A DNA stretch of 56,120 bases from a virus. Lineage: Duplodnaviria; Caudoviricetes. The stretch is taken from the IMG/VR virus record IMGVR_UViG_3300036759_000011, positions 1 to 56,120 of that record; one strand, given 5' to 3'. Position numbers and translations under genes: made by a program. Numbering within the stretch: position 1 is the stretch's first letter; every line of letters starts with the position of its first letter. The notes beneath the pieces were generated by a model. It was not told where the DNA came from. It did not search any database and worked only from the letters and a program-made list of their open reading frames with translations. This document shows positions 574 to 56,098 of the stretch, one piece after another.

Positions 574-882
574 ATGAAGAAGGGACTGAATCAGGATCAG
601 ATTAAGGCGCTCTACGCCGGTCGTCGCGTCAAGGGCCTTTACGAGGATCGCACTATCGAGTTTATCGAGTCGGATGAGCTTGGTGTCGAGCCGATGGATC
701 AGTGGCCGCTTGACTTCGGTGACAAGTCTGCCACCACTGTTTTCCAGGGATTTCGTAACGCGATTAAGAAGGGCGAGCTTACCGGCGTTGTTGACGTTAT
801 GCAGCGCGGTGGTAAGGTGTTCATCTGTCATCGTGAGCGGTGTGGTATCCCCGCTGGCGTGACCGTTGAGGACGAGAACTAG
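574..882 (+). CDS. Hypothetical protein, paralog of 8137..8463
   Basis: GGGAGGT SD; shares LYAxRRxKGLY, WP and QGFxNA motifs with the 8137 ORF. Confidence 0.85.
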   Translation: MKKGLNQDQIKALYAGRRVKGLYEDRTIEFIESDELGVEPMDQWPLDFGDKSATTVFQGFRNAIKKGELTGVVDVMQRGGKVFICHRERCGIPAGVTVEDEN

Positions 883-892
883 AATCAAACAA

Positions 893-942
893 GCTTGACC
901 CCTAGGCGCAGTAATGCGGTACTGTTAGCTTAGGGGTCAAGC
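893..942 (+). other. Intergenic long hairpin
   Basis: GCTTGACCCCTA...TAGGGGTCAAGC, 12-bp inverted repeat. Confidence 0.7.
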
Positions 943-963
943 CCTACAAACGGGAGAAAACGC

Positions 964-1314
964 ATGAAGGTATACGCGATTGTCGTCGGAGCGTTCGTTA
1001 TTCTGGCGTCAATTGTAGTTGTTTGGGTTGGGATCGATTATTACATCGCTCCGGAAATTCAGGCAGCTAGAGCACAAGCCAAGCAAGCTAAGCAAATCGA
1101 GGCTTCAAAGCCCCACGGATGGGGAGCAATTAAAACTGGGATGACCCAAGATCAAGTTAAAGATATTCTTGGTGATCCTGATAAGAAGTACGAGTACCAA
1201 GATAACACGAGTCTTTGGGTGTATTACATTACCGATTACGGCCATGATATCACCTTTGATACTGATAGCACAGTATCGTCTAAAACCATCGATTCTTATC
1301 GTCGCGCTAATTAG
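964..1314 (+). CDS. Membrane-anchored SmpA/OmlA (BamE/BLIP-like) domain protein
   Basis: N-terminal TM helix; IKTGMTQDQVKDILGDPD...WVY motif. Confidence 0.7.
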   Translation: MKVYAIVVGAFVILASIVVVWVGIDYYIAPEIQAARAQAKQAKQIEASKPHGWGAIKTGMTQDQVKDILGDPDKKYEYQDNTSLWVYYITDYGHDITFDTDSTVSSKTIDSYRRAN

Positions 1315-1326
1315 CTAGAATCCAAC

Positions 1327-1355
1327 TTGACAACTCGCCTCGGATGTGCTATGCT
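1327..1355 (+). promoter_or_regulatory. Sigma70/SigA-type promoter
   Basis: TTGACA-17bp-TATGCT with extended -10 TG. Confidence 0.85.
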
Positions 1356-1392
1356 CCCTGTGCGGGTTTTGAAGGGAACGGGAGGCGTTACC

Positions 1393-1611
1393 GTGAGTAA
1401 CAACAACTGGCAGGAACTAGAGGAATGGATGACGAACACACGTTCGGATCCTTTCCGTGACGAGTACATCTTGGATGCTGCTGTACTCGGTTGTCTAGAA
1501 ATGAATGTAGTCATCGAGGTTTTCGATGATTACAACATTGAGAATAACAAAGAGAACAGGCGCAGGTTTAGTGGCCTGATTTCCAAAGCTCTTACAGAAC
1601 ACGGCATGTAA
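1393..1611 (+). CDS. Hypothetical protein
   Basis: AACGGGAGG SD, GTG start. Confidence 0.7.
   Translation: MSNNNWQELEEWMTNTRSDPFRDEYILDAAVLGCLEMNVVIEVFDDYNIENNKENRRRFSGLISKALTEHGM
1433..1446. promoter_or_regulatory. LexA (SOS/Cheo) box inside a coding sequence
   Basis: Perfect CGAAC-ACAC-GTTCG about 70 bp downstream of the predicted start of the 1327 promoter. Confidence 0.7.
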
Positions 1612-1618
1612 TCCAGTC

Positions 1619-1895
1619 ACTAGGCTGGATAGAGTCATAGTGAGACAGGAGTAAGCTCAAAGCTTACATGGCCTCTTGTCATCTATGGCTCTATCAAGCC
1701 TAGTCACCCTAACTCAGCCGGATAACGCTATTAGGTCGTCAGTGGTAGACGCAACCACTCTCCAACCGAACGCTGTAACCAATGTCGGTGATGGCTGGCT
1801 AGGCTTGACAAGCTAGCAAGCAAAGACCATGATAAGACCACCTGTTCATACAGCAGGGCACATGGCTCACGAATGTGAATAAGCTTGCTAGCTTG
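1619..1895 (+). ncRNA. Putative structured RNA region (three consecutive long stems)
   Basis: Stems at 1619-1704, ~1708-1803 and 1809-1895 inside a ~350-bp ORF-free gap. Confidence 0.5.
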
Positions 1896-1960
1896 ACAAA
1901 TTTGCGTAGGCAGTTACCTAGAGAGTCCCCCCGCTACGCAACAAAATAAAGGAGTGGTAA

Positions 1961-2143
1961 ATGAGAATTGAGAATTGGAGCGAGATGATCGCTCGTGATC
2001 GTGAGAAGCTGCAAAGCAAGACTTACAGGCAGATGTTTGCATATAGCATCTTTCCGCTGCTTACGCTGCCTCTGCTGATCGAGCTGGAGGCTAATCAGAA
2101 GCTTAACAAGCTTGAGCAGCAACTCTTTCCGGTCAAAGCCTAG
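1961..2143 (+). CDS. Hypothetical protein
   Basis: AAGGAG SD, ATG. Confidence 0.65.
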   Translation: MRIENWSEMIARDREKLQSKTYRQMFAYSIFPLLTLPLLIELEANQKLNKLEQQLFPVKA

Positions 2144-2155
2144 ACGAAAGGATAG

Positions 2156-2184
2156 TTGACAATGCCAACCTGGCGTGTTATACT
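2156..2184 (+). promoter_or_regulatory. Sigma70/SigA-type promoter
   Basis: TTGACA-17bp-TATACT with extended -10 TG. Confidence 0.8.
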
Positions 2185-2407
2185 TCCAGTGAAGGATGAG
2201 GCAGGAAACATTGTCGATTGGATCCGAGTGGCAATGTCAGTAGCGCCAACCATGACAGAAGCGCTAACAAATGCGCGGAAAGGATGGGGCCAACAAGCTG
2301 ATGTGCAAGAATACTCACTGACTTACGAACCAGTGGGTAAGCAAACAACAACGGGAGCGTATTATGACAGAGTATACGGTCAAGAATCCGGGAGAACCCG
2401 CTTCTGA
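2162..2407 (+). CDS. Hypothetical protein
   Basis: AAAGGA SD; ORF in the gene string. Confidence 0.55.
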   Translation: MPTWRVILPVKDEAGNIVDWIRVAMSVAPTMTEALTNARKGWGQQADVQEYSLTYEPVGKQTTTGAYYDRVYGQESGRTRF

Positions 2408-3198: not shown

Positions 3199-3209
3199 CG
3201 GGAGACAAC

Positions 3210-3778: not shown

Positions 3779-4145
3779 TCACGTACCGCGTAACATTATC
3801 AGCGGATATGAGTTGACGGAGAAGGAACTGAGGGATCTTGGCTTCGATTACATGTCGGACGAATTGATTAATGGTCACTTCTTCCGCTACAAGGGTGAAG
3901 CGTATGATCTGAGGGACTTCGAGGTTATCAGCCCAATTAGGATGGTGTATCATTATCCTAATACAAAGCTGAATGAGTGGGATGGTATCATGTCTGATAC
4001 TTACTTCTCTGGTATCCTTGTAAAGTGCCCCGATGAAGATACTGTGATTGTGGGGATGTACTATGTCGATAGCAAGCCCGAGCCACGAGAATTCGTAGTT
4101 GATTCACATGGACAAACTGAAGAGGTTTACGATGGGACTGGATAA
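3756..4145 (+). CDS. Conserved phage hypothetical protein
   Basis: FFRYKGxxYDLxDF...WDGxxSDTYFSGILV pattern recalled from phage early genes. Confidence 0.75.
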   Translation: MALKITTNHVPRNIISGYELTEKELRDLGFDYMSDELINGHFFRYKGEAYDLRDFEVISPIRMVYHYPNTKLNEWDGIMSDTYFSGILVKCPDEDTVIVGMYYVDSKPEPREFVVDSHGQTEEVYDGTG

Positions 4146-4668
4146 GGAATTCATTACCAATCTGTATCGGTTGCAACTCCCGCCAGTAAACTCTGGTAGA
4201 GCAGGTTGGATGTTTGACCAACCGGCAATTCTAGCTGCGTTGGATGAACTTGAAATCAAGCTTCCCGTAGTCTTGAAGTTTCGTGCATACAAGACACATC
4301 GTTACACAGGATGGCGCACATATGCTAACCACGGCATGAGGTATCTGAATCTAGATAATCCAGATGCGGGATGCTGCCACCTGATTAAGCTTAACGATGT
4401 GGTAAAGTGGGAACTGAAGAAGTGTGGCACGGATATTACGATTGAAAAGGTAAGCATGAATCTGTGGCATGAATTGCGTCATGCTCACCAAGCAGAGGAA
4501 TGGGCAAGGTACTTTAAAGAGAACCCGATGCTTTGGCACATGAAAGGGTATGCTCATCCAAGTGCAAGAGGTAGCTGGGGTGCAACATACAAAGAGAACA
4601 TCTATGAAGTCGATGCCAGGGAGTTTGCCGAGAGTAAGCGGGAATCGCCTCTTATCGTGCCCGCCTAG
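4132..4668 (+). CDS. HExxH zincin-like metallopeptidase
   Basis: HELRHAHQ plus downstream NIYEVDA; GAGG SD. Confidence 0.75.
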   Translation: MGLDKEFITNLYRLQLPPVNSGRAGWMFDQPAILAALDELEIKLPVVLKFRAYKTHRYTGWRTYANHGMRYLNLDNPDAGCCHLIKLNDVVKWELKKCGTDITIEKVSMNLWHELRHAHQAEEWARYFKENPMLWHMKGYAHPSARGSWGATYKENIYEVDAREFAESKRESPLIVPA

Positions 4669-4671
4669 CAC

Positions 4672-6618: not shown

Positions 6619-6845
6619 GTAGCAATGAGTTTTGGGATATGGTACGTGGTGGCTATAACCTCGTAGCCACCGAGAACGGGAGAGTGGTGAAGTTCCAACA
6701 TGATACTCATGCAGCTGTGATTCATTGGCGTGCGGATGAGGGATTGGGACAAATCATTATCGAAGTAAGTGAAGTCAGTAAATTGCCGAGTGAGCCACTG
6801 ATAGCGCCACCGGCATCACATAGAAGGGATAGTATTGATGGCTAA
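6615..6845 (+). CDS. Hypothetical protein
   Basis: GTGA overlap; ACGGGAG SD. Confidence 0.7.
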   Translation: MSSNEFWDMVRGGYNLVATENGRVVKFQHDTHAAVIHWRADEGLGQIIIEVSEVSKLPSEPLIAPPASHRRDSIDG

Positions 6846-7167
6846 GATTAATCTTGGCGAAGAGTTTGAGATGAACACCCGTGATCGTTACACTAAGGTT
6901 AAGGCTCATCTATTCATTGAGCTTGACGGACGTGAGCTTCCCGCAATGTCTATCGTGGGTGAGGCACTTCAGAAGGCACGCGAGCTAATTGAAGAGGCAG
7001 TCAAGAAGTCTTACGAGATTGTGCCTGAGCGTGTGGATACACCGCAGGTTCAGCCGCAAACTATGCCTACCGCGCCTAGTGTGGCCGAACCTCGTAAGGT
7101 AACTCCTGAGCCTAACAATGATGTGGCTCCTGTTGAGCCCCCCAAGCCAGCGGTACCGTTTGGCTAA
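6838..7167 (+). CDS. Hypothetical protein with Pro-rich C-terminus
   Basis: AAGGGA SD; packed ORF. Confidence 0.75.
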   Translation: MAKINLGEEFEMNTRDRYTKVKAHLFIELDGRELPAMSIVGEALQKARELIEEAVKKSYEIVPERVDTPQVQPQTMPTAPSVAEPRKVTPEPNNDVAPVEPPKPAVPFG

Positions 7168-7352
7168 TGAAATTCACCGAGCGCGTAACTTTTAGGTTGA
7201 TTCAAATGCCATGCTGTGGGCATGCACTTTGTTGGGTGAATCCCAGATTCCCTAACTTCTGTCCGCAATGTGGTAATCACATCTTCACAAAAGTTAAGCA
7301 AGGTGTATTGTTGACCGATACAGAAGCGACCCTAAACTACGAGGGGGATTGA
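7167..7352 (+). CDS. Small Zn-ribbon protein
   Basis: PCCGH...CPQCG; TAATG overlap. Confidence 0.7.
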   Translation: MKFTERVTFRLIQMPCCGHALCWVNPRFPNFCPQCGNHIFTKVKQGVLLTDTEATLNYEGD

Positions 7353-7666
7353 TGGGACTCACCAAGGAAGAGATAGATAGACTTCTTGCGAAGAAAGCGT
7401 CACGCACTCGTGGTGGGGGTCGCAAAAAGAACGAGCCTAATCTTGATGATCGTACATATCAGACGTGGTTCAAGATGATGCACAAGCTCATTGATGATGA
7501 TACGGGAGAGATGCTGAACTGTGATAATGAGCAGTGTATCGATCCACGCGATCGTACTAACGGTCAGACCGTTATTAAGATTAAGGGTCAATGGATGTGT
7601 AGATATTGCTTCATTGATGGGTGGCTACTAGAAAACCCAGCACAGCAGGAACTTCCTGCCACATGA
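7352..7666 (+). CDS. Zn-finger protein with MGLTKEEIDRLLAKK N-terminus
   Basis: CxxxxC...CxxC; N-terminal 15 aa identical to the 16096 ORF. Confidence 0.8.
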   Translation: MGLTKEEIDRLLAKKASRTRGGGRKKNEPNLDDRTYQTWFKMMHKLIDDDTGEMLNCDNEQCIDPRDRTNGQTVIKIKGQWMCRYCFIDGWLLENPAQQELPAT

Positions 7667-8133
7667 CTTCAAGTGCTGACAACTTAGTAGAGTGGGCAAC
7701 GGACCTTTACGCTCTAATGTACGTAGAATCGAAAGTCAATGATTATGGCGAACGTGTGTTCGAGGGAAAGGTAACAGATCTGTTCAAGCACTTAGATGTG
7801 GGTATTGGGAATTATACTCCTATCCGCCAAGTCTTGGTAGAATCGGGAGCCATCGTATTCCAGCAACGTGGGAACCGGATGCAACCATCTGTCATCGAGC
7901 TTCGCGGCGCAGAAAAAATTTCGGCCGAACCCTTGACACGGGCGCGGCGAGCCGCTATAGTGAAGCTACAAGACGTTGACCGGCGGCTCGCGGCGGTCGA
8001 AAACTGGAGAGAGACAACGGGAGGTATCAATTTAGGAGAAGCACTAAGATCGATGGAACTACGGTTAACCAGGCTAGAGGAACTAGCCACAAACGGGAGA
8101 AACGAAGTTTCCCCACAAAACGAAAGGAAGTAA
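7663..8133 (+). CDS. Hypothetical protein (possible winged helix plus coiled coil)
   Basis: ATGA overlap; helical/beta pattern, coiled-coil C-terminus. Confidence 0.7.
   Translation: MTSSADNLVEWATDLYALMYVESKVNDYGERVFEGKVTDLFKHLDVGIGNYTPIRQVLVESGAIVFQQRGNRMQPSVIELRGAEKISAEPLTRARRAAIVKLQDVDRRLAAVENWRETTGGINLGEALRSMELRLTRLEELATNGRNEVSPQNERK
7749..7762. promoter_or_regulatory. LexA (SOS/Cheo) box inside a coding sequence
   Basis: Perfect CGAAC-GTGT-GTTCG about 170 bp upstream of the 7933 promoter. Confidence 0.65.
7933..7961 (+). promoter_or_regulatory. Sigma70/SigA-type promoter (intragenic)
   Basis: TTGACA-17bp-TATAGT with an upstream A/T tract. Confidence 0.8.
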
Positions 8134-8136
8134 GTA

Positions 8137-8463
8137 ATGGCTGGTTTGGATCCCAACGAGGTTAAGCGTCTTTACGCTAACCGTCGTCAGAAGGGCCTTT
8201 ACACGCAGCTTCTCTCTGAGCTTATCGGCTCTGGTGAGAATGGTGCTAACGTGAAGGAGAATTGGCCCCAGCTTGCGGAGAAGCCTGCTTCTACGCTTAA
8301 GCAGGGTTTCGAGAATGCTAAGCAGAAGAAGGACGCTCCCGAGGGTTCGGAGAACATCGATGTTATCGTGGATGGTGAGAATGTGTTTCTCATCAACACG
8401 GCAACGTTCGGTGAGGATGGTTCGGAGACTGAGGCTGAGCCTGAGGCTGCTGTCGCCCCGTAA
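8137..8463 (+). CDS. Hypothetical protein, paralog of 574..882, acidic C-tail
   Basis: AAGGAAG SD; shared motifs with the 574 ORF. Confidence 0.85.
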   Translation: MAGLDPNEVKRLYANRRQKGLYTQLLSELIGSGENGANVKENWPQLAEKPASTLKQGFENAKQKKDAPEGSENIDVIVDGENVFLINTATFGEDGSETEAEPEAAVAP

Positions 8464-8466
8464 CAG

Positions 8467-8613
8467 TTGCTTCCTATCGTCGGTTAGGGGCACCCATACC
8501 AAGATAGGAAATGCAAGTAAGCTGAGGGAGTTAGTTCCGGCGAGCTAACTCCCAAGGCTTATTAGACTGGATAAGATCCTATGCGGTGGGATAACTGTCC
8601 AGTCTAATAAGTC
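8467..8613 (+). other. Three tandem intergenic hairpins
   Basis: Stems at 8467-8516, 8526-8553 and 8556-8613; the last abuts an AGGAGG SD. Confidence 0.65.
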
Positions 8614-8622
8614 TAGGAGGAA

Positions 8623-8835
8623 ATGATGTACAAGACAATTGATGAGTTTGTCAATCACGAGATTGTTGTGTGGGGATGGGAAACTGTAGAGTCCCTGTTC
8701 AATCGCGGCTATCGAGTGATCGCCACAAACCACGGGTTTCGATGGATTCTGCCCTTGACACGGGCTCCCGGATGTGGTATGCTTTCCGGACCGAAGTACT
8801 CCCGTTCTTCGGTTTCCGTAGGAATCAGGGGTTAG
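8623..8835 (+). CDS. Hypothetical protein
   Basis: AGGAGG SD. Confidence 0.65.
   Translation: MMYKTIDEFVNHEIVVWGWETVESLFNRGYRVIATNHGFRWILPLTRAPGCGMLSGPKYSRSSVSVGIRG
8755..8783 (+). promoter_or_regulatory. Sigma70/SigA-type promoter (intragenic)
   Basis: TTGACA-17bp-TATGCT with TG. Confidence 0.8.
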
Positions 8836-13639: not shown

Positions 13640-14119
13640 ATGGCTCTGACACGGGAAGAGATCATTAGAATCTATGATGCCAGAAAAGCAAAGAGAAAGA
13701 CCTACAGTAAATCGATCATCGAGGTTGCCTTTGCTATCAAGAATCTAGTTGATGGCCCCGATCCGTTTCATGGATCAATCAGAGACATTGCAATAGCTCT
13801 CGATATTCCGTATCAGAGAGTAAGTGCAGCGCTAACCATGACAAGAACTACCTTCTGGATTAATAACGTAGGGTGGAGCTTTCCTTACAGTAAAGGAAAT
13901 TCCGAGAGACTCTGGTTCACAATCGATAGAGACGAGCATGTTCCTGAAGCTCTCCGTAGAATCGATTACAGAGTCAGCCATCTAGTTGGTTGGCTTAAGA
14001 GAGTAGAAGCACAGAATAGACTCTGTGGCAAGTTGAACGAGTCTCCGCTCATGGAGAGGAAGATCACAAGCGCAGCAATGAATATTAAACGGGCCATCGA
14101 GGATCTGGAAATGGCTTAG
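13640..14119 (+). CDS. HTH-containing hypothetical protein
   Basis: AGGAGG SD; SIRDIAIALDIPYQRVSAAL. Confidence 0.7.
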   Translation: MALTREEIIRIYDARKAKRKTYSKSIIEVAFAIKNLVDGPDPFHGSIRDIAIALDIPYQRVSAALTMTRTTFWINNVGWSFPYSKGNSERLWFTIDRDEHVPEALRRIDYRVSHLVGWLKRVEAQNRLCGKLNESPLMERKITSAAMNIKRAIEDLEMA

Positions 14120-15668: not shown

Positions 15669-16109
15669 ATGCCTAGTGAAAAAGGTTACAGATCAACCTT
15701 CGATCCGTTAGTAGTTAACACGGCGGATCTGAAAATAGTCCTCGAAAGGTTCATCATAGATTTCAAAGCTAGGCACGATGGCAAGGTCAGAATTCACAAG
15801 AGAGTTTACGGTTCGGTTGGTGGATACGAAGAGAAAGGATGGGAAGATAGACTAGATATATCTTCTCAAGAAGGTTACGTAAGCTGGATATGTAGAGAAA
15901 CGGGAGTGTCACCAAGAAGATTGTGGGGCATTCTGCATCTACAATCAAAGCACACTAGTTTGGATTTGGCAGATCAAATCTTGCAGGGATTGGAAATGAC
16001 ATACGTTTATCATAACGGTGAGGTGCCCGTCATTCCCAATCCCCGCTGGAATCAGGAGAGATGGATCAAGTGGATGAGCACCAGAGGCTTGTGCGATGGG
16101 TCTGACTAA
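15669..16109 (+). CDS. Cro/XRE-like HTH protein
   Basis: ICRETGVSPRRLWGIL...SLDLADQIL. Confidence 0.6.
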   Translation: MPSEKGYRSTFDPLVVNTADLKIVLERFIIDFKARHDGKVRIHKRVYGSVGGYEEKGWEDRLDISSQEGYVSWICRETGVSPRRLWGILHLQSKHTSLDLADQILQGLEMTYVYHNGEVPVIPNPRWNQERWIKWMSTRGLCDGSD

Positions 16110-16521
16110 AGAAGAAATCGATAGACTCCTAGCCAAGAAACGGGAGAAAGAACGTGGGAAAACTCCTCACCAGCATACGGAATATCGTTCGCAACAAAAA
16201 GGCCCACTCCGATGGTACGAACACTCAATGCCGTGTTCTAACCATGCAGGTTACAGAGGTGGAGGGTGTGGTTCACCGACATATTGTAGAGTCGAAGGAG
16301 CGCCGTTGTGTATGATGCATGCGCTTCGGAGACTTAATGAACTAGTATTGGAGATGGATAAAAATGCCCAGGCGCGCATATTCCAAAGGGAGCAACAAAG
16401 CCCGAGCATCTATGAAGAAGCAATACGGCGCCAAGAAGGGGACACAAGTATTCTACGCAACAGCGAACAAACACGGGAAGGGGAAAACACGAGCAGCCAA
16501 AGCCAACTCGGTCTTTTCTAA
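16096..16521 (+). CDS. Zn-finger protein with MGLTKEEIDRLLAKK N-terminus
   Basis: Cys/His cluster; N-terminus identical to the 7352 ORF. Confidence 0.75.
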   Translation: MGLTKEEIDRLLAKKREKERGKTPHQHTEYRSQQKGPLRWYEHSMPCSNHAGYRGGGCGSPTYCRVEGAPLCMMHALRRLNELVLEMDKNAQARIFQREQQSPSIYEEAIRRQEGDTSILRNSEQTREGENTSSQSQLGLF

Positions 16522-20834: not shown

Positions 20835-21033
20835 TTATTACGAGAAGAAGTATGAGGAATGGTTCGAGAAGCACACAAACACTTCTCGATGGCATCCGCT
20901 CAGGAAACACAAAGCTAAGATCGAGTACGAGTATTATCTCAGAATGATGATGGATACAATCCAGATCGAGAAAGAAGAGTTTGCGGAGTATCTGAGGGAG
21001 AGAGAAGAGCAAGGCCATGCAGCCAAAAGCTGA
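20818..21033 (+). CDS. Hypothetical protein
   Basis: Packed ORF. Confidence 0.6.
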   Translation: MSAQVNYYEKKYEEWFEKHTNTSRWHPLRKHKAKIEYEYYLRMMMDTIQIEKEEFAEYLREREEQGHAAKS

Positions 21034-23470
21034 ACATGCTATTTGTGATAAGTGCCCGCTGAAGAACAAATCTTTTGCGGCATCGACCGGGCCGACCGAT
21101 GCGAAGATCGCAGTCGTATCTAGATCGCCAGGTCATTACGAAGCTATCCGAGGTAAGAGTTTTTCGGGGCCAAGCGGGAGAATCCTGGATCATCTGCTCA
21201 AGATTCATGGAGTAGACAGGAAAGATGTATTTGCCACAAATGCCGTCTTGTGCCAAGCCGATGGTACAGAGCAGGGTTTCGGATTAGCTGTCGCTTGTTG
21301 CGAACCGCGTCTAAAGGCGGAAATCGCTAATGCTGATACTATCATTGCGGCTGGCAGAGAGGCAGCCTACAGCGTTCTAGGAGTTTCTAATGTAGGCCAG
21401 AATCGTGGCTATCCCCATTTCGTGCAAACGAATGGGAAGGCGCAACGTGTCATCGTTACTAACAATCCTGCTGTTGTGCTTAGGGACGACGCTACTTATC
21501 CTGAGCTTGTTCGTGATTTTCGATTGGCTATAGCACCACTACCAACTCCAAAGCTACCAAAAGTACGATTCACTGAGAACGTCGTAGAGGCGAGGGAATG
21601 GGTAGAACAAATACTTCCCACGCTGGTGCCTGGTACTCTACTGGCATCAGACCTTGAAACCAGGAGTGAGGGTGATGGAGCTTACAATAGAATTGTTTGT
21701 GCAGGTTTCTCCACAAGATCCGAACGTGCCATCGTTTTCGGAGAGTCGGTCTGTTACAATAATGATTTCCTCGGAAACTATCTCCGACGACTTTATGAAA
21801 TCCCTGGAATCTCTTACCTCTGGCATAACGGAAAATATGACGTCAAGGTATTACGAAGAGCCGGAATAAATGCGCGCGTCGATCATGATTCTATGCTTGT
21901 CAGTTGGTGTCTCGATGAGCGTCCTGGCGACCCTGATAGTGGTGCTGGCGGCCATTCGCTAGAATGGTTGCTAAAGGATGAACTAGGATGGCCGAAATAC
22001 GAGCCACCATCTGTGCGGCAGTTTAAGAAAGATGGTATCCTCGCGGATGCTAAAGCGCATGAGGAACTATACAAATACAACGGCCATGATACCGCAGGAA
22101 CTATCTCACTGTTCGAGGTTCTGAAGGAACGGGCCATCAATGACAACGTTTGGGAGAAACCATATCTCTCGCTGCTGATCCGCTTGAGTGAGGCGTTGGC
22201 TCGTACTGAGATGCAGGGTACTATCTACGATGCTGAGGAATCCTGCAACATTCTAGAGCGGGTCGTGTGGCCTAAACTGCGAGCACAGCGTGCCTATATG
22301 CGGGAGCTATGTGGTGTCAAGCTTCTGAATCCAAACTCGCCCAAGCAACTTGAGAAGCTGATGTATGATGATTGGGGGCTTCATCACAACCTCATCAGAT
22401 CAAACATTGAGCGAGTAGGCAAGCGATCCACCGACAAATTCGTTCGGGACGAGATTCTACAAGTAGGGTTTAATTGCAATGACTCGGTTCATCGAGAGAC
22501 TTTCAAACTATTTGTTGAAACCCTCGATCAATTTAAGGAACTTGACAAGCAGAGAGGAACCTATCTTGAGGGACTCGTCCTCAAGCGAAGTAAGGACGGA
22601 AGAATTTACACTGACTTTAAGATTCACGGAACTGAGTCCGGGAGGGTTAGTGGTAATAAGCCAAACCTACAAAACATCACAAGACCAAAAGACGGATTAC
22701 CAAATATCCGTAGTGCCTTCGTTCCAGACCCCGGATGTATTTTTGTCTCTGCTGACCTCTCTCAAGCTGAGCTTCGCGCAATTGCCGCACTCAGTGGTGA
22801 CGAACAACTTCAATCAGTTTACACCGATACAAGTAGGTCACTCCACAAAGAAGTTGCCACCCAATTCTATGGAAGTGATTACACCTACGAACAGTACGTT
22901 GTTGCAAAGAACATCAACTTTGGAGTGGCTTATTGGCAGAGTGCATACAGCTTCGCGCAGATGTATCATATCAGTCAGGAAGAAGCTCAGAATTTTATAG
23001 ACTACTGGTGGAACAGATTTCCGGCGGTGTGGGACTGGACTAAGCACATGGAAGCTTTGGTGCTTAAGAAAGGGGAGATTCAATCTCCGTTCGGTCACAA
23101 GCGCAGGTTCTATGTAATCCCACAGGATGAGTCCGCACGTATCCATGTGGTCAAGGAAGGCATTAACTTCCTACCGCAGAACATCGCCGCAAATATCACC
23201 AATTGGGCTTTGTGTGAATTCACCGAATGGTTAACTGCTACAAATAAATGGGACGTTATCAGCACGCGCATAACAGTCCATGATAGCATCCTTGTCAATT
23301 GTAAGCAGGCTTACGTACCAGAAGCTGTGAGTAAACTAAAAGAATGTCTGGAAACCGCACCGCAAAAAGCTCTTGGCTGGGAGTTTCCTTTTGTGGCGGA
23401 ATTCAGCGTCGGCTCTAATTGGGGCCAAATGGAAGATTACCATGAAAACGCTTACAGCAATTCACGGTGA
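21017..23470 (+). CDS. polA: Family A DNA polymerase with N-terminal uracil-DNA-glycosylase-like domain
   Basis: UDG4-like CxxCPL..SPG..E..F.GPSG; exonuclease DLET/HNGKYD/YNGHD; polymerase DLSQAELR, KNINFG, VHDS. Confidence 0.93.
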   Translation: MQPKAEHAICDKCPLKNKSFAASTGPTDAKIAVVSRSPGHYEAIRGKSFSGPSGRILDHLLKIHGVDRKDVFATNAVLCQADGTEQGFGLAVACCEPRLKAEIANADTIIAAGREAAYSVLGVSNVGQNRGYPHFVQTNGKAQRVIVTNNPAVVLRDDATYPELVRDFRLAIAPLPTPKLPKVRFTENVVEAREWVEQILPTLVPGTLLASDLETRSEGDGAYNRIVCAGFSTRSERAIVFGESVCYNNDFLGNYLRRLYEIPGISYLWHNGKYDVKVLRRAGINARVDHDSMLVSWCLDERPGDPDSGAGGHSLEWLLKDELGWPKYEPPSVRQFKKDGILADAKAHEELYKYNGHDTAGTISLFEVLKERAINDNVWEKPYLSLLIRLSEALARTEMQGTIYDAEESCNILERVVWPKLRAQRAYMRELCGVKLLNPNSPKQLEKLMYDDWGLHHNLIRSNIERVGKRSTDKFVRDEILQVGFNCNDSVHRETFKLFVETLDQFKELDKQRGTYLEGLVLKRSKDGRIYTDFKIHGTESGRVSGNKPNLQNITRPKDGLPNIRSAFVPDPGCIFVSADLSQAELRAIAALSGDEQLQSVYTDTSRSLHKEVATQFYGSDYTYEQYVVAKNINFGVAYWQSAYSFAQMYHISQEEAQNFIDYWWNRFPAVWDWTKHMEALVLKKGEIQSPFGHKRRFYVIPQDESARIHVVKEGINFLPQNIAANITNWALCEFTEWLTATNKWDVISTRITVHDSILVNCKQAYVPEAVSKLKECLETAPQKALGWEFPFVAEFSVGSNWGQMEDYHENAYSNSR

Positions 23471-30527: not shown

Positions 30528-31232
30528 TTACGCTCCGGGTTGATCTTCCACGACGCCCTGATACGTGGCGTACTTGGTATACACAACGCCGTAACTAGCA
30601 TTATTGTGATAAAGCTGGTCGTAATCTTGGCCTGTGGCCGTCACATAGCGGAGGACGATTCCCGCGGGCTTCTGGGCGATAATATCTTTAAGCGTTTGTG
30701 CTGGATCGGGAGTCTCACTAGCATATGTGATGATAGTAAGACCGTATGGTGGCTCAGCCGGACAAGCTGCGTGATCGCGCTCTCTAAATACAACAGTCTT
30801 ACGCCCGGTAAGATGGAGAGCAGCGGCGCGCTTAATCTGATCCACTGTACCACGTTCTAGATTAGTAGAAGCTCTAATCCTATCACGCTGTTCTTCGTCT
30901 GTTAGACCTGGAACAACTCCGGTTCCCAGAAACTGCGCGATATAGGGGAGTCCCTTGTTGGGGATCCTATTCAGATCAACTAGAACAGACCAGCCGACTT
31001 CCCCATTCAAAGTATCCCTAGCGAGGAATTCTACCTCCTTAAACATTTCCCCAACCGCTCTAATATAGATCATGAAGTCATCAGTCATAACGACATTCAT
31101 AGCATCTATAATAGGATCAGGAAATGTATTTACATACTCTTCCGGAGTCGCAGGTTCTACCGGGGCAGCTACACGGAAGCCTCTATAAAAGCCCGATCCG
31201 TAATACCCCATTCCATATTCAGTGCCAGCCAT
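30528..31232 (-). CDS. Baseplate wedge protein (P2 gpI-like)
   Basis: LPYIAQFLG, RGT, KPAGI; position after baseplate J. Confidence 0.75.
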   Translation of the reverse strand: MAGTEYGMGYYGSGFYRGFRVAAPVEPATPEEYVNTFPDPIIDAMNVVMTDDFMIYIRAVGEMFKEVEFLARDTLNGEVGWSVLVDLNRIPNKGLPYIAQFLGTGVVPGLTDEEQRDRIRASTNLERGTVDQIKRAAALHLTGRKTVVFRERDHAACPAEPPYGLTIITYASETPDPAQTLKDIIAQKPAGIVLRYVTATGQDYDQLYHNNASYGVVYTKYATYQGVVEDQPGA

Positions 31233-32197
31233 TAGAGCTTAATGATCCTAGTAACCACAGTATAGGGCGGCATGATAGAATGTGATCCACCGCCACCAGT
31301 GTTATTACTGATAGTCCCACCAATAGTGGGGAAGCTTGTTGCTCCGCCAACTCCACCGCCACAAATCGGGGATGAGTTTGGGCCACCCGATACTGCGGTG
31401 AATGCTGAGGTAGCATATCCGCCACCGCTACCAAAGCTGCCCGTGCCGAATGATGTATAGTTGTGAGTATGGCTGGGCAAGCTGATGTTGTGACTGTGTG
31501 CATGATCCGGCAGAGTTAGTGCGTGTGGATGCGTGTGAGCAGGGATCTGTGCGGCCGTTAGAGTAACGGTCTTTGCTCCGCCAGTTTGTCCTACCGTAGC
31601 AAACTCTGTCTGACCTGAATCGACGCTGAAGTTGGCAACACCCTTGGGTGGAACGTTGAAATGGCTGCCATCCACAGCACCCCATCTCGTACCAATCGCA
31701 GCGAACAACGCATCATAAGTTCCACCCGTTCGTGGATACGAAGCACCATTGCACAAGACCCAACCAGATGGGGCAGCAGTTCCACCATAATCGATCATCA
31801 TTCCTGGCAGGAATGTGGTAATAGTAGCCCATACGGGCGCACCACTCTGGGCCATAACTACTTGACCGTCTGATCCAACCGGGATTGGATAAGCAGGCGC
31901 TCCCGGAATACCTTGTGGGCCTACAACACCCTGAATACCTTGCGGACCAGTTGGGCCTGCTGGACCTACTGGACCAGTTGGGCCTGCTGGACCCGTAGGA
32001 CCAGCCAATCCACCTTCAGCAGCAGTAATTCTGGCTGCGACAGTGGCAGCACCACCCTGTGGATTCAGACCAAGCGTAGACTCAATCGCATTAACAGCGC
32101 TCGCAATTAGATTATGCGTGTCCGCATGGTCATGCTCCATGAGAGTGTCGTCATTTTTATTGGACGGGAGGTTATCTAGAGTGGTTGGATATGCCAT
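31232..32197 (-). CDS. Second tail fibre protein (collagen plus tail collar)
   Basis: GPT repeats; APSGWVLCNG..LFAAIGTRWG..FNVP. Confidence 0.88.
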   Translation of the reverse strand: MAYPTTLDNLPSNKNDDTLMEHDHADTHNLIASAVNAIESTLGLNPQGGAATVAARITAAEGGLAGPTGPAGPTGPVGPAGPTGPQGIQGVVGPQGIPGAPAYPIPVGSDGQVVMAQSGAPVWATITTFLPGMMIDYGGTAAPSGWVLCNGASYPRTGGTYDALFAAIGTRWGAVDGSHFNVPPKGVANFSVDSGQTEFATVGQTGGAKTVTLTAAQIPAHTHPHALTLPDHAHSHNISLPSHTHNYTSFGTGSFGSGGGYATSAFTAVSGGPNSSPICGGGVGGATSFPTIGGTISNNTGGGGSHSIMPPYTVVTRIIKL

Positions 32198-45869: not shown

Positions 45870-47648
45870 TTACACCTTTGCAGCAGCGCGATACCCACGA
45901 GCTAGCTCAGGATAGCGTCTGGCTGCCTCAGTAAGAGCGGCATCAAAGTCCAGCTTATCCTCACGCTGGATTTCCGCAACACGATCAGCGAACATCTTGC
46001 GAGCACGCTGGATACCTTCAGCACTCGTAGTATCCACAGAAAATTCACTAACAGCAGGAGCGAGAGAGCTACCAATCTCTCCATACTGAACCGTTCCACC
46101 CTCAGCGATAGCCTTCAAACAAGACTCGAAATCACCGAGTCCGGCCTCACCAACAGCAAACCGCTTATGAGTCTCTGCCACGATATCCTGCGCGTGGGCA
46201 GAAAGTCCCCATCCACTCTTCCTCATTCCAGCACCCTCAGGCTGCTTGAATTCGGTAATGGACTTGACGAACGTGTCTGCGTTGATTGAGCGATCACGCT
46301 CGACCATCGCAACATGCTCTTCCCACATACGCGGGAACTTCTTACGGAAATCTGCTTCCTCATTGCTGAGGCTAACAGCAGAACGCATACTCTCTACTTC
46401 TCCATGCAGAGTTTGCACAGCAGCGAAAACTTCATCGTCAGTCGCCTCTGCGTTAAGTCCTAGAAGCTCACGGAGATTCAATGCGATACCCTCCCCTCTA
46501 GCATTAGTATTAGGTGGAGATGGAGTAGGTGTGGGAGCACCCGGCCCATATACGGGGAGGGGATCCCTGCGCGATCCAGATTTAATTGCTGGATCATCTG
46601 AGCCATCCTCGTCAGTCCGCGGTGTTGGAGGCGAGCCGGTTCCCGGCTCAGAATGCTCCCACTCTTTCGACTCTGTGTACAGTTTCCCGTACACGCTGGG
46701 CGATACGGCCGAACCACCAAATGGAAGATATCCACTAGTATTACCGGTCCAAATCAGACTGGCGTTAGCAGCATTTCCACCTGGGAATACAACAGTCACA
46801 TTCCGTTGTGAGCCAATCTGACCAAGTACGTGCTCGTATGGCATGACAGCATCCACCATGCCAGCTTCAAGAGACTTCTTAGCGGTAAGCATTCGCCCAC
46901 CACCAAAATGCTCAAAAACGTCCGATGCGTCGGCTCCACGACCCCGTGCTACAGAATCGATAAACTCTTCATACACTTCATCTACTACTTCCTGTCGGTA
47001 CTCCTTTCCTTCCGAGGAGAGCGGCTCGTGCTCGTTTCCTTCCGTCTTGTACTTACCCGCAGAGATGTAAGTAAAGCGACGGCCCTCTTGTGCATCATGT
47101 CCGGACTGATCTTCGTGGACGGTATATACACCGATGCTACCTACACTTCCACTCGGGGTTACATACAGTCCTCCGCGAGCCTGCGAAGCCAGCCAATACG
47201 CCGCCGAACCCGCCATCGTGTTCGCCACCGCATATACAGGCTTGTCGGCATTGTAAATTTCATCGCCCACCTCAGAAATCATATCTGAAGTACCACCAGG
47301 ACTATCGATATCCAGAAGAATGGAATGGACTGCATCATCTTTCATTGCAGCCCTAAACTCACTCTGGAATGATTCCATGCTAGTAGCGCCACTCATCTCA
47401 GTCAAGAGATTCGCTTTGCCAAAGATAGGCCCGTAAAGTGGGAGAATGCCAGTACCCTGGTAACGACGATAGGAATTCTCACTACCATCGTGTTCAGCAT
47501 ACTCTAGACGGGCACGAATCTCCTCATCCGTAAGATATTCCCCACGGATACGGCTATCCACGATACCGAGAATTAGATCAAGCGCCTCAGGAGTGATGAG
47601 CCAAGGCGTTGTCTTGATCTTGTTCACAATCCTAAGGTAATCTCGCAT
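45870..47648 (-). CDS. S49 prohead protease with C-terminal scaffold domain
   Basis: DIDSPGG, SAAYWLASQA, GSIGV, GKYK. Confidence 0.92.
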   Translation of the reverse strand: MRDYLRIVNKIKTTPWLITPEALDLILGIVDSRIRGEYLTDEEIRARLEYAEHDGSENSYRRYQGTGILPLYGPIFGKANLLTEMSGATSMESFQSEFRAAMKDDAVHSILLDIDSPGGTSDMISEVGDEIYNADKPVYAVANTMAGSAAYWLASQARGGLYVTPSGSVGSIGVYTVHEDQSGHDAQEGRRFTYISAGKYKTEGNEHEPLSSEGKEYRQEVVDEVYEEFIDSVARGRGADASDVFEHFGGGRMLTAKKSLEAGMVDAVMPYEHVLGQIGSQRNVTVVFPGGNAANASLIWTGNTSGYLPFGGSAVSPSVYGKLYTESKEWEHSEPGTGSPPTPRTDEDGSDDPAIKSGSRRDPLPVYGPGAPTPTPSPPNTNARGEGIALNLRELLGLNAEATDDEVFAAVQTLHGEVESMRSAVSLSNEEADFRKKFPRMWEEHVAMVERDRSINADTFVKSITEFKQPEGAGMRKSGWGLSAHAQDIVAETHKRFAVGEAGLGDFESCLKAIAEGGTVQYGEIGSSLAPAVSEFSVDTTSAEGIQRARKMFADRVAEIQREDKLDFDAALTEAARRYPELARGYRAAAKV

Positions 47649-53890: not shown

Positions 53891-53899
53891 GACAAGAGG

Positions 53900-54208
53900 T
53901 TACTTGGTAGTAGAGGGAGCTTGCAGTTCCTTAATCAGATTCTTGATCGGGTCGCCATCGTCCTTCGCATCGTTAATGGCATACTCGATAACTGCCTTAG
54001 CCGCAGACAGTCTTGTGCTCTCGCTGTGTGCGTTGTTAGCAAGCCACACTACTTGTGCAGCTGCGGCTGCTGCCTGTGTCTTGAAGAAGTCTCTGGTAAG
54101 CTCTTCTACATTTTCAGGCACGCCATTCTTACTCAGCTCGTATTCTGCTTTGATGGCTTTTTGATAATTTTTAAGCTCTTCTTGCAAGTTTTCATCGTCT
54201 AGAGCCAT
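53900..54208 (-). CDS. Terminase small subunit candidate
   Basis: First gene of the late operon; AAGGAG SD; STRLSAAKAVIE helical motif. Confidence 0.6.
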   Translation of the reverse strand: MALDDENLQEELKNYQKAIKAEYELSKNGVPENVEELTRDFFKTQAAAAAAQVVWLANNAHSESTRLSAAKAVIEYAINDAKDDGDPIKNLIKELQAPSTTK

Positions 54209-54410: not shown

Positions 54411-54425
54411 TCCCAAACCTGGGTA

Positions 54426-54478
54426 AGTATACCACGTTACTCAGTGGGGAGCTTATAAGTTAGTTCTTACTAACTTAT
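54426..54478 (-). promoter_or_regulatory. Putative late promoter with upstream palindromic operator
   Basis: Extended -10 TGGTATACT on the - strand, weak -35, perfect IR ATAAGTTAGT-TCTT-ACTAACTTAT at 54455-54478. Confidence 0.55.
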
Positions 54479-54660
54479 TGATTTTATCGTTGGTACATTC
54501 TAAAAGACGGTTCCAAGTGCTTACCCCCCATTCGGGGAGTATAGTTCCTAGACCATTGGGGGGTATCATCCTATACCTTTGGGGGGTGTGCTAGGGAAGG
54601 GGGTCGGCTATAGTGAGGGAGTGAGGTTGATGGAGAGAGCGAGTTGAGAGGAAGTGAGAG

Positions 54661-54837
54661 ATGAGAGTCATCACAATTGAAGTGTATGATCACACTCCGA
54701 TGGAGGAAGTGCGGGATATCATCAACTGTATCGTCGCGCTAGGAGTCCCTGCCAATAAGGTAGCGTTCATGGACGAACCAGAGCTGAGGGATCCTTGGTT
54801 GGACTCCGAGGAAGCCTGCGAGATTGAAGCCTGGTAG
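54661..54837 (+). CDS. Hypothetical protein (not in track)
   Basis: GAGGAAG SD; 58 aa; TATAGT -10 at 54609. Confidence 0.65.
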   Translation: MRVITIEVYDHTPMEEVRDIINCIVALGVPANKVAFMDEPELRDPWLDSEEACEIEAW

Positions 54838-54840
54838 ATA

Positions 54841-54925
54841 GTTAGGCGTGAACTATACCAACGTATAGTTCACATCTAACACTCTGTCAGCTAGAGTGTA
54901 GTTGTAAGGCAAAACCGAACGGGAG
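54841..54925 (+). repeat. Double-hairpin intergenic cassette, copy 1
   Basis: Long stem, then ACACTCT/AGAGTGT stem, then AACGGGAG. Confidence 0.75.
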
Positions 54926-54932
54926 GAACGGA

Positions 54933-55139
54933 ATGACCCGCGAACAGTATGACTACCTGGCGCAGTATGTCAGTGGGTACACTGGTACCAAGGTGGTCAG
55001 CATCAATTTCGAGATCGATGGTTCGATGATCCTCGTAACCGAGCATCCGTCAAGCTGGGATTTTAGCTACCAATACAAGGATCGGGTCTATATCGACGGT
55101 TCAATGCAGGAACTGGACACGAACGAAGTTGCGGTCTAG
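54933..55139 (+). CDS. Hypothetical protein
   Basis: AACGGGAGG SD. Confidence 0.75.
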   Translation: MTREQYDYLAQYVSGYTGTKVVSINFEIDGSMILVTEHPSSWDFSYQYKDRVYIDGSMQELDTNEVAV

Positions 55140-55145
55140 CGGATA

Positions 55146-55234
55146 GTTTAGGTGGGATACTAGACTAAGGTCTAGTATCCCACCTAAACACTCTATGCTA
55201 GAGTGTACTTAGCACCGAAAAAACCTAACGGGAG
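55146..55234 (+). repeat. Double-hairpin intergenic cassette, copy 2
   Basis: Perfect 20-bp stem, then ACACTCT/AGAGTGT stem, then AACGGGAG. Confidence 0.75.
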
Positions 55235-55240
55235 GCAGGA

Positions 55241-55660
55241 ATGCGTGATCTAGACGCAATCGCACGGGCCGATGAAAAGCGCCGGAGGAATCGCAAGATT
55301 CTCGATGACGCAATCATCGCAGGCAAGACTTCGCAAAGCTACGTGGATACCATGCTCGAATGGTACAACAACGCTTCGCGGTCAAAAACCGTCACCCATG
55401 ATGTGATGGATAAGGGAATCGGCGCGGTTATTCCTCCGCGCAAGTATCCAAAGACTCCTGCAAGGCTGACGTACACAAACGAGGCAAAGCAGGAAGGTAC
55501 CACTCCCAACATCGCGGTTTGGTATCCCGGCGCGGACGAACCAGTCATCCGGCCTGCCAATACGAAAAAGTTTCACAAGCGAAGTTCTACCAAGGTGGTG
55601 AAAATTGCGAACACGGTAGAAACCGCCACAATCCGGCACGGTCACAACTTCAATAGCTAA
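55241..55660 (+). CDS. Basic hypothetical protein
   Basis: AACGGGAGG SD. Confidence 0.75.
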   Translation: MRDLDAIARADEKRRRNRKILDDAIIAGKTSQSYVDTMLEWYNNASRSKTVTHDVMDKGIGAVIPPRKYPKTPARLTYTNEAKQEGTTPNIAVWYPGADEPVIRPANTKKFHKRSSTKVVKIANTVETATIRHGHNFNS

Positions 55661-55729
55661 GTGGTTTTGGGTGACAATCCCTCATTCGAGGGATTGCATC
55701 CCAAAGCTCACTCAACTACAGTAGGAGTA
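55661..55729 (+). repeat. Double-hairpin intergenic cassette, diverged copy 3
   Basis: TTTGGG..CAATCCCTC/GAGGGATTG..CCCAAA, then an ACTC..GAGT stem. Confidence 0.55.
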
Positions 55730-55734
55730 CGGAA

Positions 55735-55848
55735 ATGATGATGTGGAAATGCAGTAAGGGTCATATGAACGTCGCACACAACATACCGCCTTTCCGCAAG
55801 TTTCCACGGCTGATTTGTTGGGCTTGTCACTTCTCGAAGGAAGGCTAA
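55735..55848 (+). CDS. Small Zn-ribbon peptide (not in track)
   Basis: AGGAG SD; CSKGH..CWAC. Confidence 0.55.
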   Translation: MMMWKCSKGHMNVAHNIPPFRKFPRLICWACHFSKEG

Positions 55849-55849
55849 C

Positions 55850-56098
55850 GTGACAGACAAGGAAATCTCGGCACTCTACAAGAAAACCAGCGCCACAGGG
55901 AAGAATTGGAAGTTTCAGGAAGGTCAAAAACTTCCCTTGACACACACTTCAGAGTGTGGTAAGTTTCATGGCAAGGCAGGTACAATTAAGCGCAGTCGCA
56001 AGGGTAGTGTTACCAGATTGCCTAACGGTAAGCGCTGGTATCCACATCCCGATAGTGACTATGGAACGTATGTAACTGCGTATTTGTATCATCCATAG
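55850..56098 (+). CDS. Basic hypothetical protein
   Basis: AAGGAAGG SD, GTG start. Confidence 0.6.
   Translation: MTDKEISALYKKTSATGKNWKFQEGQKLPLTHTSECGKFHGKAGTIKRSRKGSVTRLPNGKRWYPHPDSDYGTYVTAYLYHP
55937..55965 (+). promoter_or_regulatory. Sigma70/SigA-type promoter (intragenic)
   Basis: TTGACA-17bp-TAAGTT with TG. Confidence 0.65.

Follow-up and report, generated by a model that had tools for sequence, protein, structure and literature searches.

A short N-terminal helix on otherwise unrelated phage proteins varies in step within genomes of an uncultured myovirus clade

The window analyzed here, a stretch of 56,120 nucleotides, is the whole 56-kb genome of an uncultured myovirus in which several small proteins begin with the same kind of peptide, a tag that takes up the N-terminal 12–15 residues and has the form of a short N-capped amphipathic helix. 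The tag follows the pattern small-Leu-Thr/Asp/Ser-x-x-Glu/Gln/Asp-Ile/Val-x-x-Leu/Ile-Leu/Tyr, often with Ala next, and usually leads into a basic or Pro-containing linker. Its carriers, which include three mutually unrelated protein families (A, B and C), belong to a clade of uncultured 56–60-kb myoviruses, and across the families of one genome the tags change in step. We propose, with a probability of roughly 0.58, that the tag is a modular address label by which the tagged proteins would dock onto one partner, most likely encoded by the phage itself.

The tag was first noticed in an identical pair of N termini. The family A gene (7352–7666; this gene, the other six candidates and gene X below all lie on the plus strand, as do their tags) encodes a Cys-rich protein of 104 residues that is Zn-ribbon-like by inspection, and the family B gene (16096–16521) encodes a CCCH protein of 141 residues in which C47, C58, C72 and H75 are invariant. 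Both proteins begin MGLTKEEIDRLLAKK, matching at 15 of 15 residues, with the tag at residues 2–15 in each (nt 7355–7396 and nt 16099–16140) and a basic Gly-rich linker following it in 7352. Of the 14 codons after the start Met, nine differ between the two genes, all nine synonymously; codon usage would lead one to expect 5.4 identical codons, against the five observed. BLASTP aligns the two proteins over residues 1–21 only, and in a profile–profile comparison of the families the alignment is confined to the first 19 columns. The shared N terminus, the synonymous differences and the divergence of the remainder are thus as the first-pass annotation had described them, and the tag is the sole part that families A and B have in common. 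In the AF2 models the helix starts at residue 5 in both proteins, spanning residues 5–16 of 7352, whose whole-model quality is poor (pLDDT 43), and residues 5–20 of 16096 at pLDDT 80–85, where the model as a whole reaches 77 and a low-confidence linker lies between helix and core. At its opposite end, 16096 carries a clamp-type C-terminal pentapeptide (nt 16504–16518), a Pol II-type clamp-binding motif. The gene for an AAA_24 ATPase always lies directly downstream of the family B gene.

The remaining candidates were scored with a position matrix trained on relatives only, in which 7352 and 16096 each reach 19.8 and which gives 10 or above to 2 of 1156 ORFs taken from 80 viral loci drawn at random. 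Family C occurs twice in the window, at 8137–8463 (108 residues; score 16.7), where the tag at residues 3–16 (nt 8143–8184) runs straight into a conserved R-x-K-G-x-Y segment, and at 574–882 (102 residues; score 27.0), with the tag at residues 4–17 (nt 583–624). Since these two are paralogues over their full length (38% identity over 91 residues, E 5e-17), we count them as one family. The N termini of the five genes said to share the register of the identical pair read as quoted, and their standing is uneven. The gene at 13640–14119 (159 residues, HTH-like by inspection; tag at residues 2–15, nt 13643–13684; score 10.9) probably represents a fourth tagged family, and its orthologue in L130 also has a tag-like helix at the N terminus. 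The gene at 55850–56098 (82 residues, GTG start; score 9.8) is perhaps a fifth, with the start Met in the tag's Leu position (nt 55850–55888) and an orthologue in L127 that scores 11.3. The gene at 4132–4668 (178 residues, with an H-E-x-x-H segment) is a doubtful member: it matches the regular expression of the first-pass annotation and fails the matrix with a score of 1.9, and its orthologue in L129 lacks the tag and has only sub-threshold metallopeptidase matches. The labels Zn finger, peptidase and HTH come from inspection only, and none of the seven candidate proteins has a Pfam or PHROG match.

The core of the tag is a classical helix N-cap with a hydrophobic staple, and such helices are widespread. 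One alternative, which we consider unlikely, is that the tag is a generic, well-capped first helix and that its likeness between families goes back to an ancient exchange, or to gene conversion, of a short 5′ segment, with no shared partner. The resemblance to a capping box is real: tag positions 1, 2, 5 and 6 are hydrophobic, Thr/Ser/Asp, Glu/Gln and hydrophobic. The capping pattern that we tested (hydrophobic, Ser/Thr/Asp/Asn, x, x, Glu/Gln/Asp, hydrophobic at the helix start) is matched by 574, 7352, 8137, 13640 and 16096, and it also appears at 6 of the 1156 random viral N termini and, internally, about 1.1 times per 1000 positions. At N termini, however, it is found in 4 of 97 window ORFs against those 6 of 1156 (p 0.005), and the motif at window N termini is about 8-fold more frequent than in random viral ORFs, contrary to the first-pass annotation's condition for rejecting the tag, that the motif be no commoner than background N-caps. 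The regular expression of the first-pass annotation, defined with the data already in view, matches within the first seven residues of 5 of 97 window ORFs and of none of the 1156 random ORFs (Fisher p 2.5e-6), for which start-site errors of our home-made ORF caller may have reduced the count. Within the first ~12 residues, the matrix scores 574, 7352, 8137, 13640 and 16096 at 10 or above, and 55850 and 4132 below. The best internal matrix match in the window (18.2) lies inside 964–1314, a gene for a membrane-anchored protein, and is probably unrelated. A generic cap leaves unexplained this N-terminal enrichment, the conservation of positions 9–11 and the co-variation across families described below.

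In at least 12 related viral contigs, families A, B and C likewise start with a capped amphipathic helix of this kind, and orthologues of family A occur in 11 related genomes or loci. All genomic orthologues examined have such a helix, and the same register recurs in the orthologues of G001, L010, L011, L017, L020 and L127–L134. For family C in L129, L130, L132 and L134, we chose as the start an internal Met directly before the tag, with the tag position known, and RBS-like sequence supports this choice. Database homologues of the identical pair likewise start with a helix in this register, contrary to the second condition that the first-pass annotation set for rejecting the tag, and they vary in how closely they follow it: one of the two homologues of 7352 has the tag with two changes and the other the hydrophobic register only, and two of the three non-identical homologues of 16096 have a similar tag, with only the capped-helix register in the most distant. 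Between orthologues, the tag changes no more slowly than the remainder of the protein: P0002, for example, has an overall identity of 68% but retains about 4 of the 15 tag residues. Further tagged families are indicated in relatives, where 6 of 418 ORFs outside the training set score at least 10, compared with 2 of the 1156 random ORFs (p 0.006). One of these six, in a single relative, is a tagged Endonuclease VII (Pfam Endonuclease_7, E 3e-22) whose domain begins at residue 43, preceded by the tag and a basic linker, and in genome G003 six proteins begin M-P-L and continue with the tag. Between two and six tagged proteins are found per genome. Taken over these predicted proteins, the comparisons show the tag to be independent of protein family.

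To compare tags between families, we took the best ungapped BLOSUM62 segment within the first ~21 residues and shuffled genome labels 50,000 times; the comparison covers families A, B and C, the orthologues of 13640, 55850 and 4132 being too few. For A and C in 11 genomes, the mean score was 34.9 within genomes and 24.1 between them, and 1 of 50,000 shuffles reached the observed sum. The corresponding means in nine genomes were 38.0 and 22.8 for A and B (8 of 50,000 shuffles, or 60 with the window removed) and 26.3 and 18.4 for B and C (33 of 50,000). The genomes in all three comparisons are related, so that a single ancestral event may be counted in several of them. The A–C result was still significant when the two genomes most alike were left out (29 of 50,000), and likewise with three left out (185 of 50,000). 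In the distant G001 and L011, within-genome similarity is weak, with A–C scores of 23 and 18. Tags therefore change in step across the families of one genome, and they do so without homogenization of the underlying DNA: among identical residues in within-genome A–C and A–B pairs, 47 share a codon and 63 do not, so that codon identity is near chance. Selection therefore acts on the predicted tag peptide, as this near-chance codon identity shows, and since the tags co-vary without sharing codons, a genome-specific factor would keep them alike.

These results bear directly on the account by generic helix and exchange. Its appeal is that, according to one study, fragments common to unrelated phage proteins are often seen (PMC10684548), and codon sharing is uneven among within-genome pairs, with eight codons the same and four different in the A–C pair of L127. 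Old exchange followed by independent evolution, however, predicts equal similarity within and between genomes, which all three family pairs reject, and recent conversion predicts shared codons, whereas the 7352/16096 pair is at chance; for 14 residues to remain unchanged in both copies while their codons were randomized, selection for identity is needed. Orthologous tags moreover differ even between close relatives. The tag likewise resembles domain mosaicism as described in the same study (PMC10684548) in being a fragment common to otherwise unrelated proteins, but differs in that it comprises about 15 residues rather than a domain, occurs within one genome and is alike at the protein level only. 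If a single partner, shared by the tagged proteins and specific to each genome, read the peptide, one would expect just such a family-independent tag that co-varies without homogenization, and on that ground the docking or targeting peptide postulated in the first-pass annotation gains support as a putative function.

Co-variation among the tags could also arise if they bound one another, forming a hetero-oligomer through an N-terminal helix bundle whose helices co-evolve mutually, and the genes for A and C do lie only one gene apart, with the start of the intervening gene overlapping the end of A. We regard this as very unlikely, because a helix of about 11 residues, hydrophobic at only three or four of them, offers little length for a stable bundle, helices that pack together have to be complementary whereas the tags show likeness, and the number of tagged proteins ranges from two to six per genome.

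The first-pass annotation had also remarked on a likeness to FliM, and for the tag version of this genome the likeness holds: FliM and FliY too have an N-terminal capped amphipathic helix, and the E. coli FliM N terminus, as read from the genome, matches the window tag at 6 of 10 residues in the same N-terminal position. The EIDRLL of the window matches five of six residues of the motif EIDALL reported in two papers (PMC9126983, PMC6946799), being one residue off. FliM is also a precedent for such a helix acting as a docking peptide. A mimic of this flagellar switch peptide that binds host phosphorylated CheY or FlhG is nevertheless highly improbable. The tags of relatives lack the motif (for example, KIKEIY, TIKELL and ALESIL), which is therefore not the conserved feature, and the Asp is missing from the ‘LY’ tags carried by 574, 8137 and 13640; a conserved host protein, moreover, would leave the rapid, genome-specific co-variation unexplained. 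Unlike the FliM/FliY helix, the tag is carried by many families; no PF02154 (FliM) domain was found in the window genome, and the tag is not attached to FliM/FliN (SPOA) domains.

The closest precedent is the T4 capsid targeting sequence (CTS) of IPI, IPII, IPIII and Alt. The propeptides of the T4 internal proteins are reported to be N-terminal peptides of 10–19 residues on otherwise diverse proteins, identical in IPII and IPIII and similar in IPI, and to be retained in relatives whose protein bodies differ (PMC9026906, PMC3012670). The tags have the same anatomy, being N-terminal, of a length within that range and attached to diverse proteins of one phage. They could accordingly send proteins into the prohead via the scaffold, perhaps to be cleaved and then injected with the DNA. 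A prohead protease (Peptidase_S49), to which the scaffold may be fused, is encoded at 45870–47648, and the co-variation within genomes would be accounted for if the receptor were a fast-evolving phage protein, for instance a scaffold. We nonetheless hold capsid targeting to be quite unlikely. A scan of six whole genomes placed the tagged genes of every one of them in the early/replication arm, and Endonuclease VII and a clamp-motif protein fit replication better than packaging as cargo. The structural arm of these genomes contains only two weak matches, one at 53900–54208 (9.1) and one at 10.0; the latter, in a conserved protein of 358–403 residues, looks like chance. The present phage further differs from T4 in lineage, with a Mu-type portal and an S49 protease, in that its tags are known from genes alone rather than from a virion proteome, and in that its tagged genes include those for nuclease and Zn-finger-like proteins. 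We know of no report for T4 of within-genome co-variation of the kind measured here.

We therefore return to the address label as the preferred reading. The helix would be placed as a tag before otherwise unrelated small proteins, all of which would dock by it onto one putative partner; the binding site of this partner would differ from phage to phage, and the partner would therefore most likely be phage-encoded. Most tagged proteins are DNA-acting in appearance, and their gene neighborhood (SNF2, nuclease, AAA_24, DUF669, primase-helicase and PolA), together with the clamp-type C terminus of B, suggests that the partner most likely belongs to the replication/recombination apparatus. Gene X (7663–8133, 156 residues, untagged), whose start overlaps the end of A, always lies between A and C in a gene order kept in nine loci; it gave no significant Pfam or PDB match, and it is by inference a candidate partner. 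The β-clamp-binding motif offers a parallel, being described as a short terminal peptide by which many unrelated clients use one hub site (PMC3716654), and protein B carries such a motif at the end opposite its tag. In contrast to that motif, the tag is helical, N-terminal, of another pattern and variable between related genomes. More tentatively, the tags may constitute a programmable address code, in which a phage hub, possibly gene X or a replisome component, reads a genome-specific helix and thereby assembles varying combinations of nucleases, Zn-finger and HTH proteins. With the clamp-binding pentapeptide at one end and the tag at the other, protein B would then couple the hub to the host sliding clamp, and new clients would join by gaining a tag of roughly 15 residues, as the tagged Endonuclease VII suggests.

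To our knowledge, the T4 internal proteins are essentially the only phage proteins described with short transferable targeting peptides. If the address label is correct, it would be a second, independent case, from an uncultured lineage and detected from sequence alone, and the measurable co-evolution of the tags could be used to find their receptor. A docking code would give roughly eight orphan families a shared functional context and provide a 15-residue handle with which cargo could be brought to a phage machine. It would also supply a recipe for recognizing hubs and their clients in viral dark matter, namely N termini that are more alike within than between genomes.

The proteins encoded at 7352-7666 and 16096-16521 share the N-terminal sequence MGLTKEEIDRLLAKK. 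Over this stretch, nine of the 14 codons that follow the ATG differ, all of them synonymously, just as the first-pass annotation had read, and the five further N-termini that it aligned with this pair (those of ORFs 574, 4132, 8137, 13640 and 55850, named by start coordinate) have the sequences it quoted. The five codons that are identical compare with 5.4 expected by chance for 14 identical residues under the codon usage of the window, so the identity of the two peptides leaves no trace at the nucleotide level. Since the likeness is one of residues rather than codons, we rejected a common 5' RNA signal or translational operator as its source. The BLASTP alignment of the two proteins is confined to residues 1-21, and that of the profiles of their families, the Cys-rich family A (7352) and the CCCH family B (16096), to the first 19 columns. 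ORFs 574 and 8137 are full-length paralogues (family C). None of the seven ORFs has a significant match in Pfam or PHROG.

When the first 20 residues of 90 window proteins were compared all against all, the pair 7352/16096 scored 78; internal 20-mers, drawn 200 times as controls, had a mean maximum of 34.8. Of the eight N-terminal pairs that score at least 30, seven fall among 574, 7352, 8137, 13640 and 16096. A second tag pair, from the related complete genome G001 (13650 and 51865, the latter on the minus strand), was dropped, its N-termini scoring 41 against a control mean maximum of 40. For the background, 80 viral loci were drawn with an arbitrary pattern, yielding 1156 ORFs from the same home-made caller as was used for the window. 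The regular expression of the first-pass annotation, which was composed post hoc with the data already seen, matches 5 of 97 window ORFs (574 is missing here, displaced by an overlapping ORF in that run) and 0 of the 1156 background ORFs; for a generic capping-box pattern the counts are 4 of 97 and 6 of 1156. Because the expression had been written with the data in view, we built a 14-column matrix from 31 tags, all from relatives and none from the window. It gives 27.0 for 574, 19.8 for both 7352 and 16096, 16.7 for 8137, 10.9 for 13640, 9.8 for 55850 and 1.9 for 4132, with scores of at least 10 in two and at least 8 in six of the 1156 background ORFs. Of the 94 window ORFs that belong to none of families A, B and C, three reach at least 8, versus the 6 of 1156 in the background (p = 0.025). 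A 102-residue ORF at the head of the minus-strand arm (53900-54208, minus strand), whose only Pfam match is sub-threshold, has an N-terminus that scores 9.1. The top internal score, 18.2, belongs to residues 59-72 of the membrane-anchored protein at 964-1314 (plus strand), which has a hydrophobic N-terminus; this segment is probably the capped first helix of a domain and unrelated to the tag, and its score warns that generic capped helices can do well on the matrix. With fair confidence, we count five tag carriers of four families in the window, and one more is possible. ORF 4132 (4132-4668, plus strand), which contains an H-E-x-x-H segment, is a doubtful carrier; its orthologue at L129:9085-9537 lacks the tag and matches Peptidase_M78 and DUF6782 at sub-threshold level only.

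The tag is retained in homologues. Database homologues of 7352 begin MGLTKEQIDALLAKK and MPLDPQLFAEILESKE, those of 16096 begin MGLTDEQIAALRSKE and MALTDTEIDAILKKKE, and a distant 83-residue relative of 16096 carries a capped helix a few residues further inward. Searches of viral and metagenome contigs provided G001 and the loci L010, L011, L017, L020 and L127-L134, four of these relatives being later taken whole as genomes G003-G006 (L127 is G003, and L128 lies in G004). The exact window peptide, searched as a degenerate DNA pattern, had no match in viral contigs, and family B had no relatives in genome_contigs. In the family alignments (A4 for A, A3 for B and A5 for C), every orthologue examined has an N-terminal helix in the same register, and C47, C58, C72 and H75 are invariant in B. 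The AF2 model of 16096 (mean pLDDT 77) places a helix at residues 5-20 (pLDDT 80-85), with a low-confidence linker between this helix and a core of beta-hairpin and helix; that of 7352 is poor (pLDDT 43), yet a helix is present at residues 5-16. No PDB fold matches the 16096 model at E 0.001 or better, a profile search of family C against the PDB gives nothing below E 0.1, and 8137 finds only unnamed viral clusters in the ESM Atlas.

The version of the tag differs between genomes and is alike across the families of any one genome. Families A, C and B begin MPLDPDKIKEIYAKK, MPLDPDKIRSIYAKRR and MPLTDEQIQALYQRK in L127/G003, and MALTPEQIKELYAKK, MALTPDQIKNIYAKRR and MPLTPDQIAELYAKK in L130. In L134, an S-E-L ... 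I-K-x-L-L version is common to A and one C paralogue, and in L010 an acidic version with an E-P end occurs on both A and B. All six tagged proteins of G003 begin M-P-L, whereas those of the window begin M-G-L, M-A-G-L, M-K-K-G-L or M-A-L, so the residue right after the methionine also looks genome-specific. Independent evolution of the families after an ancient exchange would leave their tags equally alike within and between genomes; we shuffled the genome labels 50,000 times against this null. Mean scores within and between genomes are 34.9 and 24.1 for A-C (11 genomes), 38.0 and 22.8 for A-B (9 genomes), and 26.3 and 18.4 for B-C (9 genomes), and the observed sums were reached by 1, 8 (60 when the window is omitted) and 33 shuffles, respectively. 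Dropping the two or three genomes that are most alike leaves the A-C result standing (29 and 185 of 50,000); the genomes are related to one another, and the distant G001 and L011 add little. The weaker comparison of A with the second C paralogue, over five genomes, is not significant (19 of 120). Recent gene conversion is ruled out as the cause by codon sharing: identical residues in within-genome A-C and A-B pairs use the same codon in 47 cases and different codons in 63, with a rough expectation of 0.36 from the codon usage of the window. A caveat on the test is that four C starts were placed at an internal methionine that precedes the tag and has an RBS-like sequence upstream. In these genes (L129:10744, L130:1743, L132:600 and L134:8530, all on the plus strand) the open frame runs 30-50 codons upstream of that methionine; the long form is either an artefact of ORF calling or a second isoform. 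The tag is under selection at the protein level, independently of the family that bears it, and co-varies within genomes. The shared tag of the first-pass annotation is real, and the finding is stronger than could be known from the window: across the clade, unrelated small phage proteins carry an N-terminal tag that co-evolves.

Among relatives' ORFs outside the training set, 6 of 418 score at least 10, against 2 of 1156 random ORFs (p = 0.006). They include one further B member (L130), one protein of the 55850 family (L127) and three Cys/His-rich or unknown small proteins. The sixth, a recombination Endonuclease VII at L128:514-897 (plus strand; genome G004), matches Pfam Endonuclease_7 over residues 43-125 (E 3e-22), and its 42-residue N-terminal extension consists of the tag and a basic linker. 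Of all the carriers, this enzyme points most clearly to the tag being an add-on module.

Scans of six whole genomes place the tagged genes in the early/replication arm. The window, a 56,120-bp complete IMG/VR entry with an estimated completeness of 92%, has plus-strand genes at 1-27 kb and again from 54.6 kb, with minus-strand genes between. The plus arm encodes an SNF2 helicase, a PD-(D/E)XK nuclease, an AAA_24 ATPase, DUF669, a DUF3987 primase-helicase, a dNMP kinase and a family A DNA polymerase (PolA; 21017-23470, plus strand) with an N-terminal uracil-DNA-glycosylase-superfamily domain and a 3'-5' exonuclease domain. The minus arm is structural, with a Mu-type portal, S49 prohead protease, sheath, baseplate J, tape measure, tail-collar/collagen fibres and CHAP lysin; collagen triple-helix repeats occur in the tail-fibre-region proteins at 27327-28067 and 31232-32197 (both minus strand), one of which has a tail-collar domain. 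The best relatives of PolA are below 30% identity and a 12-kb megablast matched no cultured phage; by these measures the virus has no close cultured relative.

The window (6838-8835, plus strand), G001, L011, L127, L128, L130, L131, L133 and L134 all have their genes in the order 6838-family, A, X, C, 8626-family, and gene X (7663-8133) lies invariably between A and C. By inspection, X has a helix-turn-helix-like centre and a coiled-coil-like C-terminus; its profile finds nothing in the PDB below E 0.1, and Pfam searches of nine members gave single chance matches only, none significant. X is a candidate receptor for the tag, by position only. Protein B adjoins the AAA_24, DUF669, primase-helicase and PolA genes, and in the window it ends in Q-L-G-L-F (nt 16504-16518, plus strand), as does its database homologue P0004; the extension bearing this ending is missing from shorter B-family members. 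For E. coli Pol II, PMC3716654 reports this same pentapeptide as the beta-clamp motif.

The tag has at its core a capping-box/staple helix start of the general kind, and this by itself accounts for neither the enrichment nor the co-variation. The first-pass annotation had loosely likened the tag to the CheY-binding peptide of FliM. The window tag does match E. coli FliM at 6 of 10 residues, and the published EIDALL motif at 5 of 6, but the likeness is not kept in relatives. CheY (Swiss-Prot reference) with family A residues 1-36 gave a predicted-complex score of 0.02 against a mark of 0.32 in a run without controls, which speaks neither for nor against binding. The closest precedent is the T4 capsid targeting sequence. 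According to PMC9026906 and PMC3012670, the T4 peptides are propeptides of 10-19 residues at the N-termini of otherwise diverse proteins; IPII and IPIII carry an identical one, and that of IPI is similar. The likeness lies in the short N-terminal peptide on diverse proteins. When we searched the literature for early phage proteins that share an N-terminal tag of this kind, only capsid targeting in T4 and giant phages and domain mosaicism in general came up.

As to partner and function, we infer that the tag lets its bearers dock on a single partner, much as the first-pass annotation proposed. The site on this partner would differ from phage to phage, which makes a phage-encoded partner probable. 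Both the gene neighbourhood and the types of client point to a partner within the replication/recombination apparatus, to which the tag would bring Zn-finger-like proteins, an HTH-like protein, Endonuclease VII and B.
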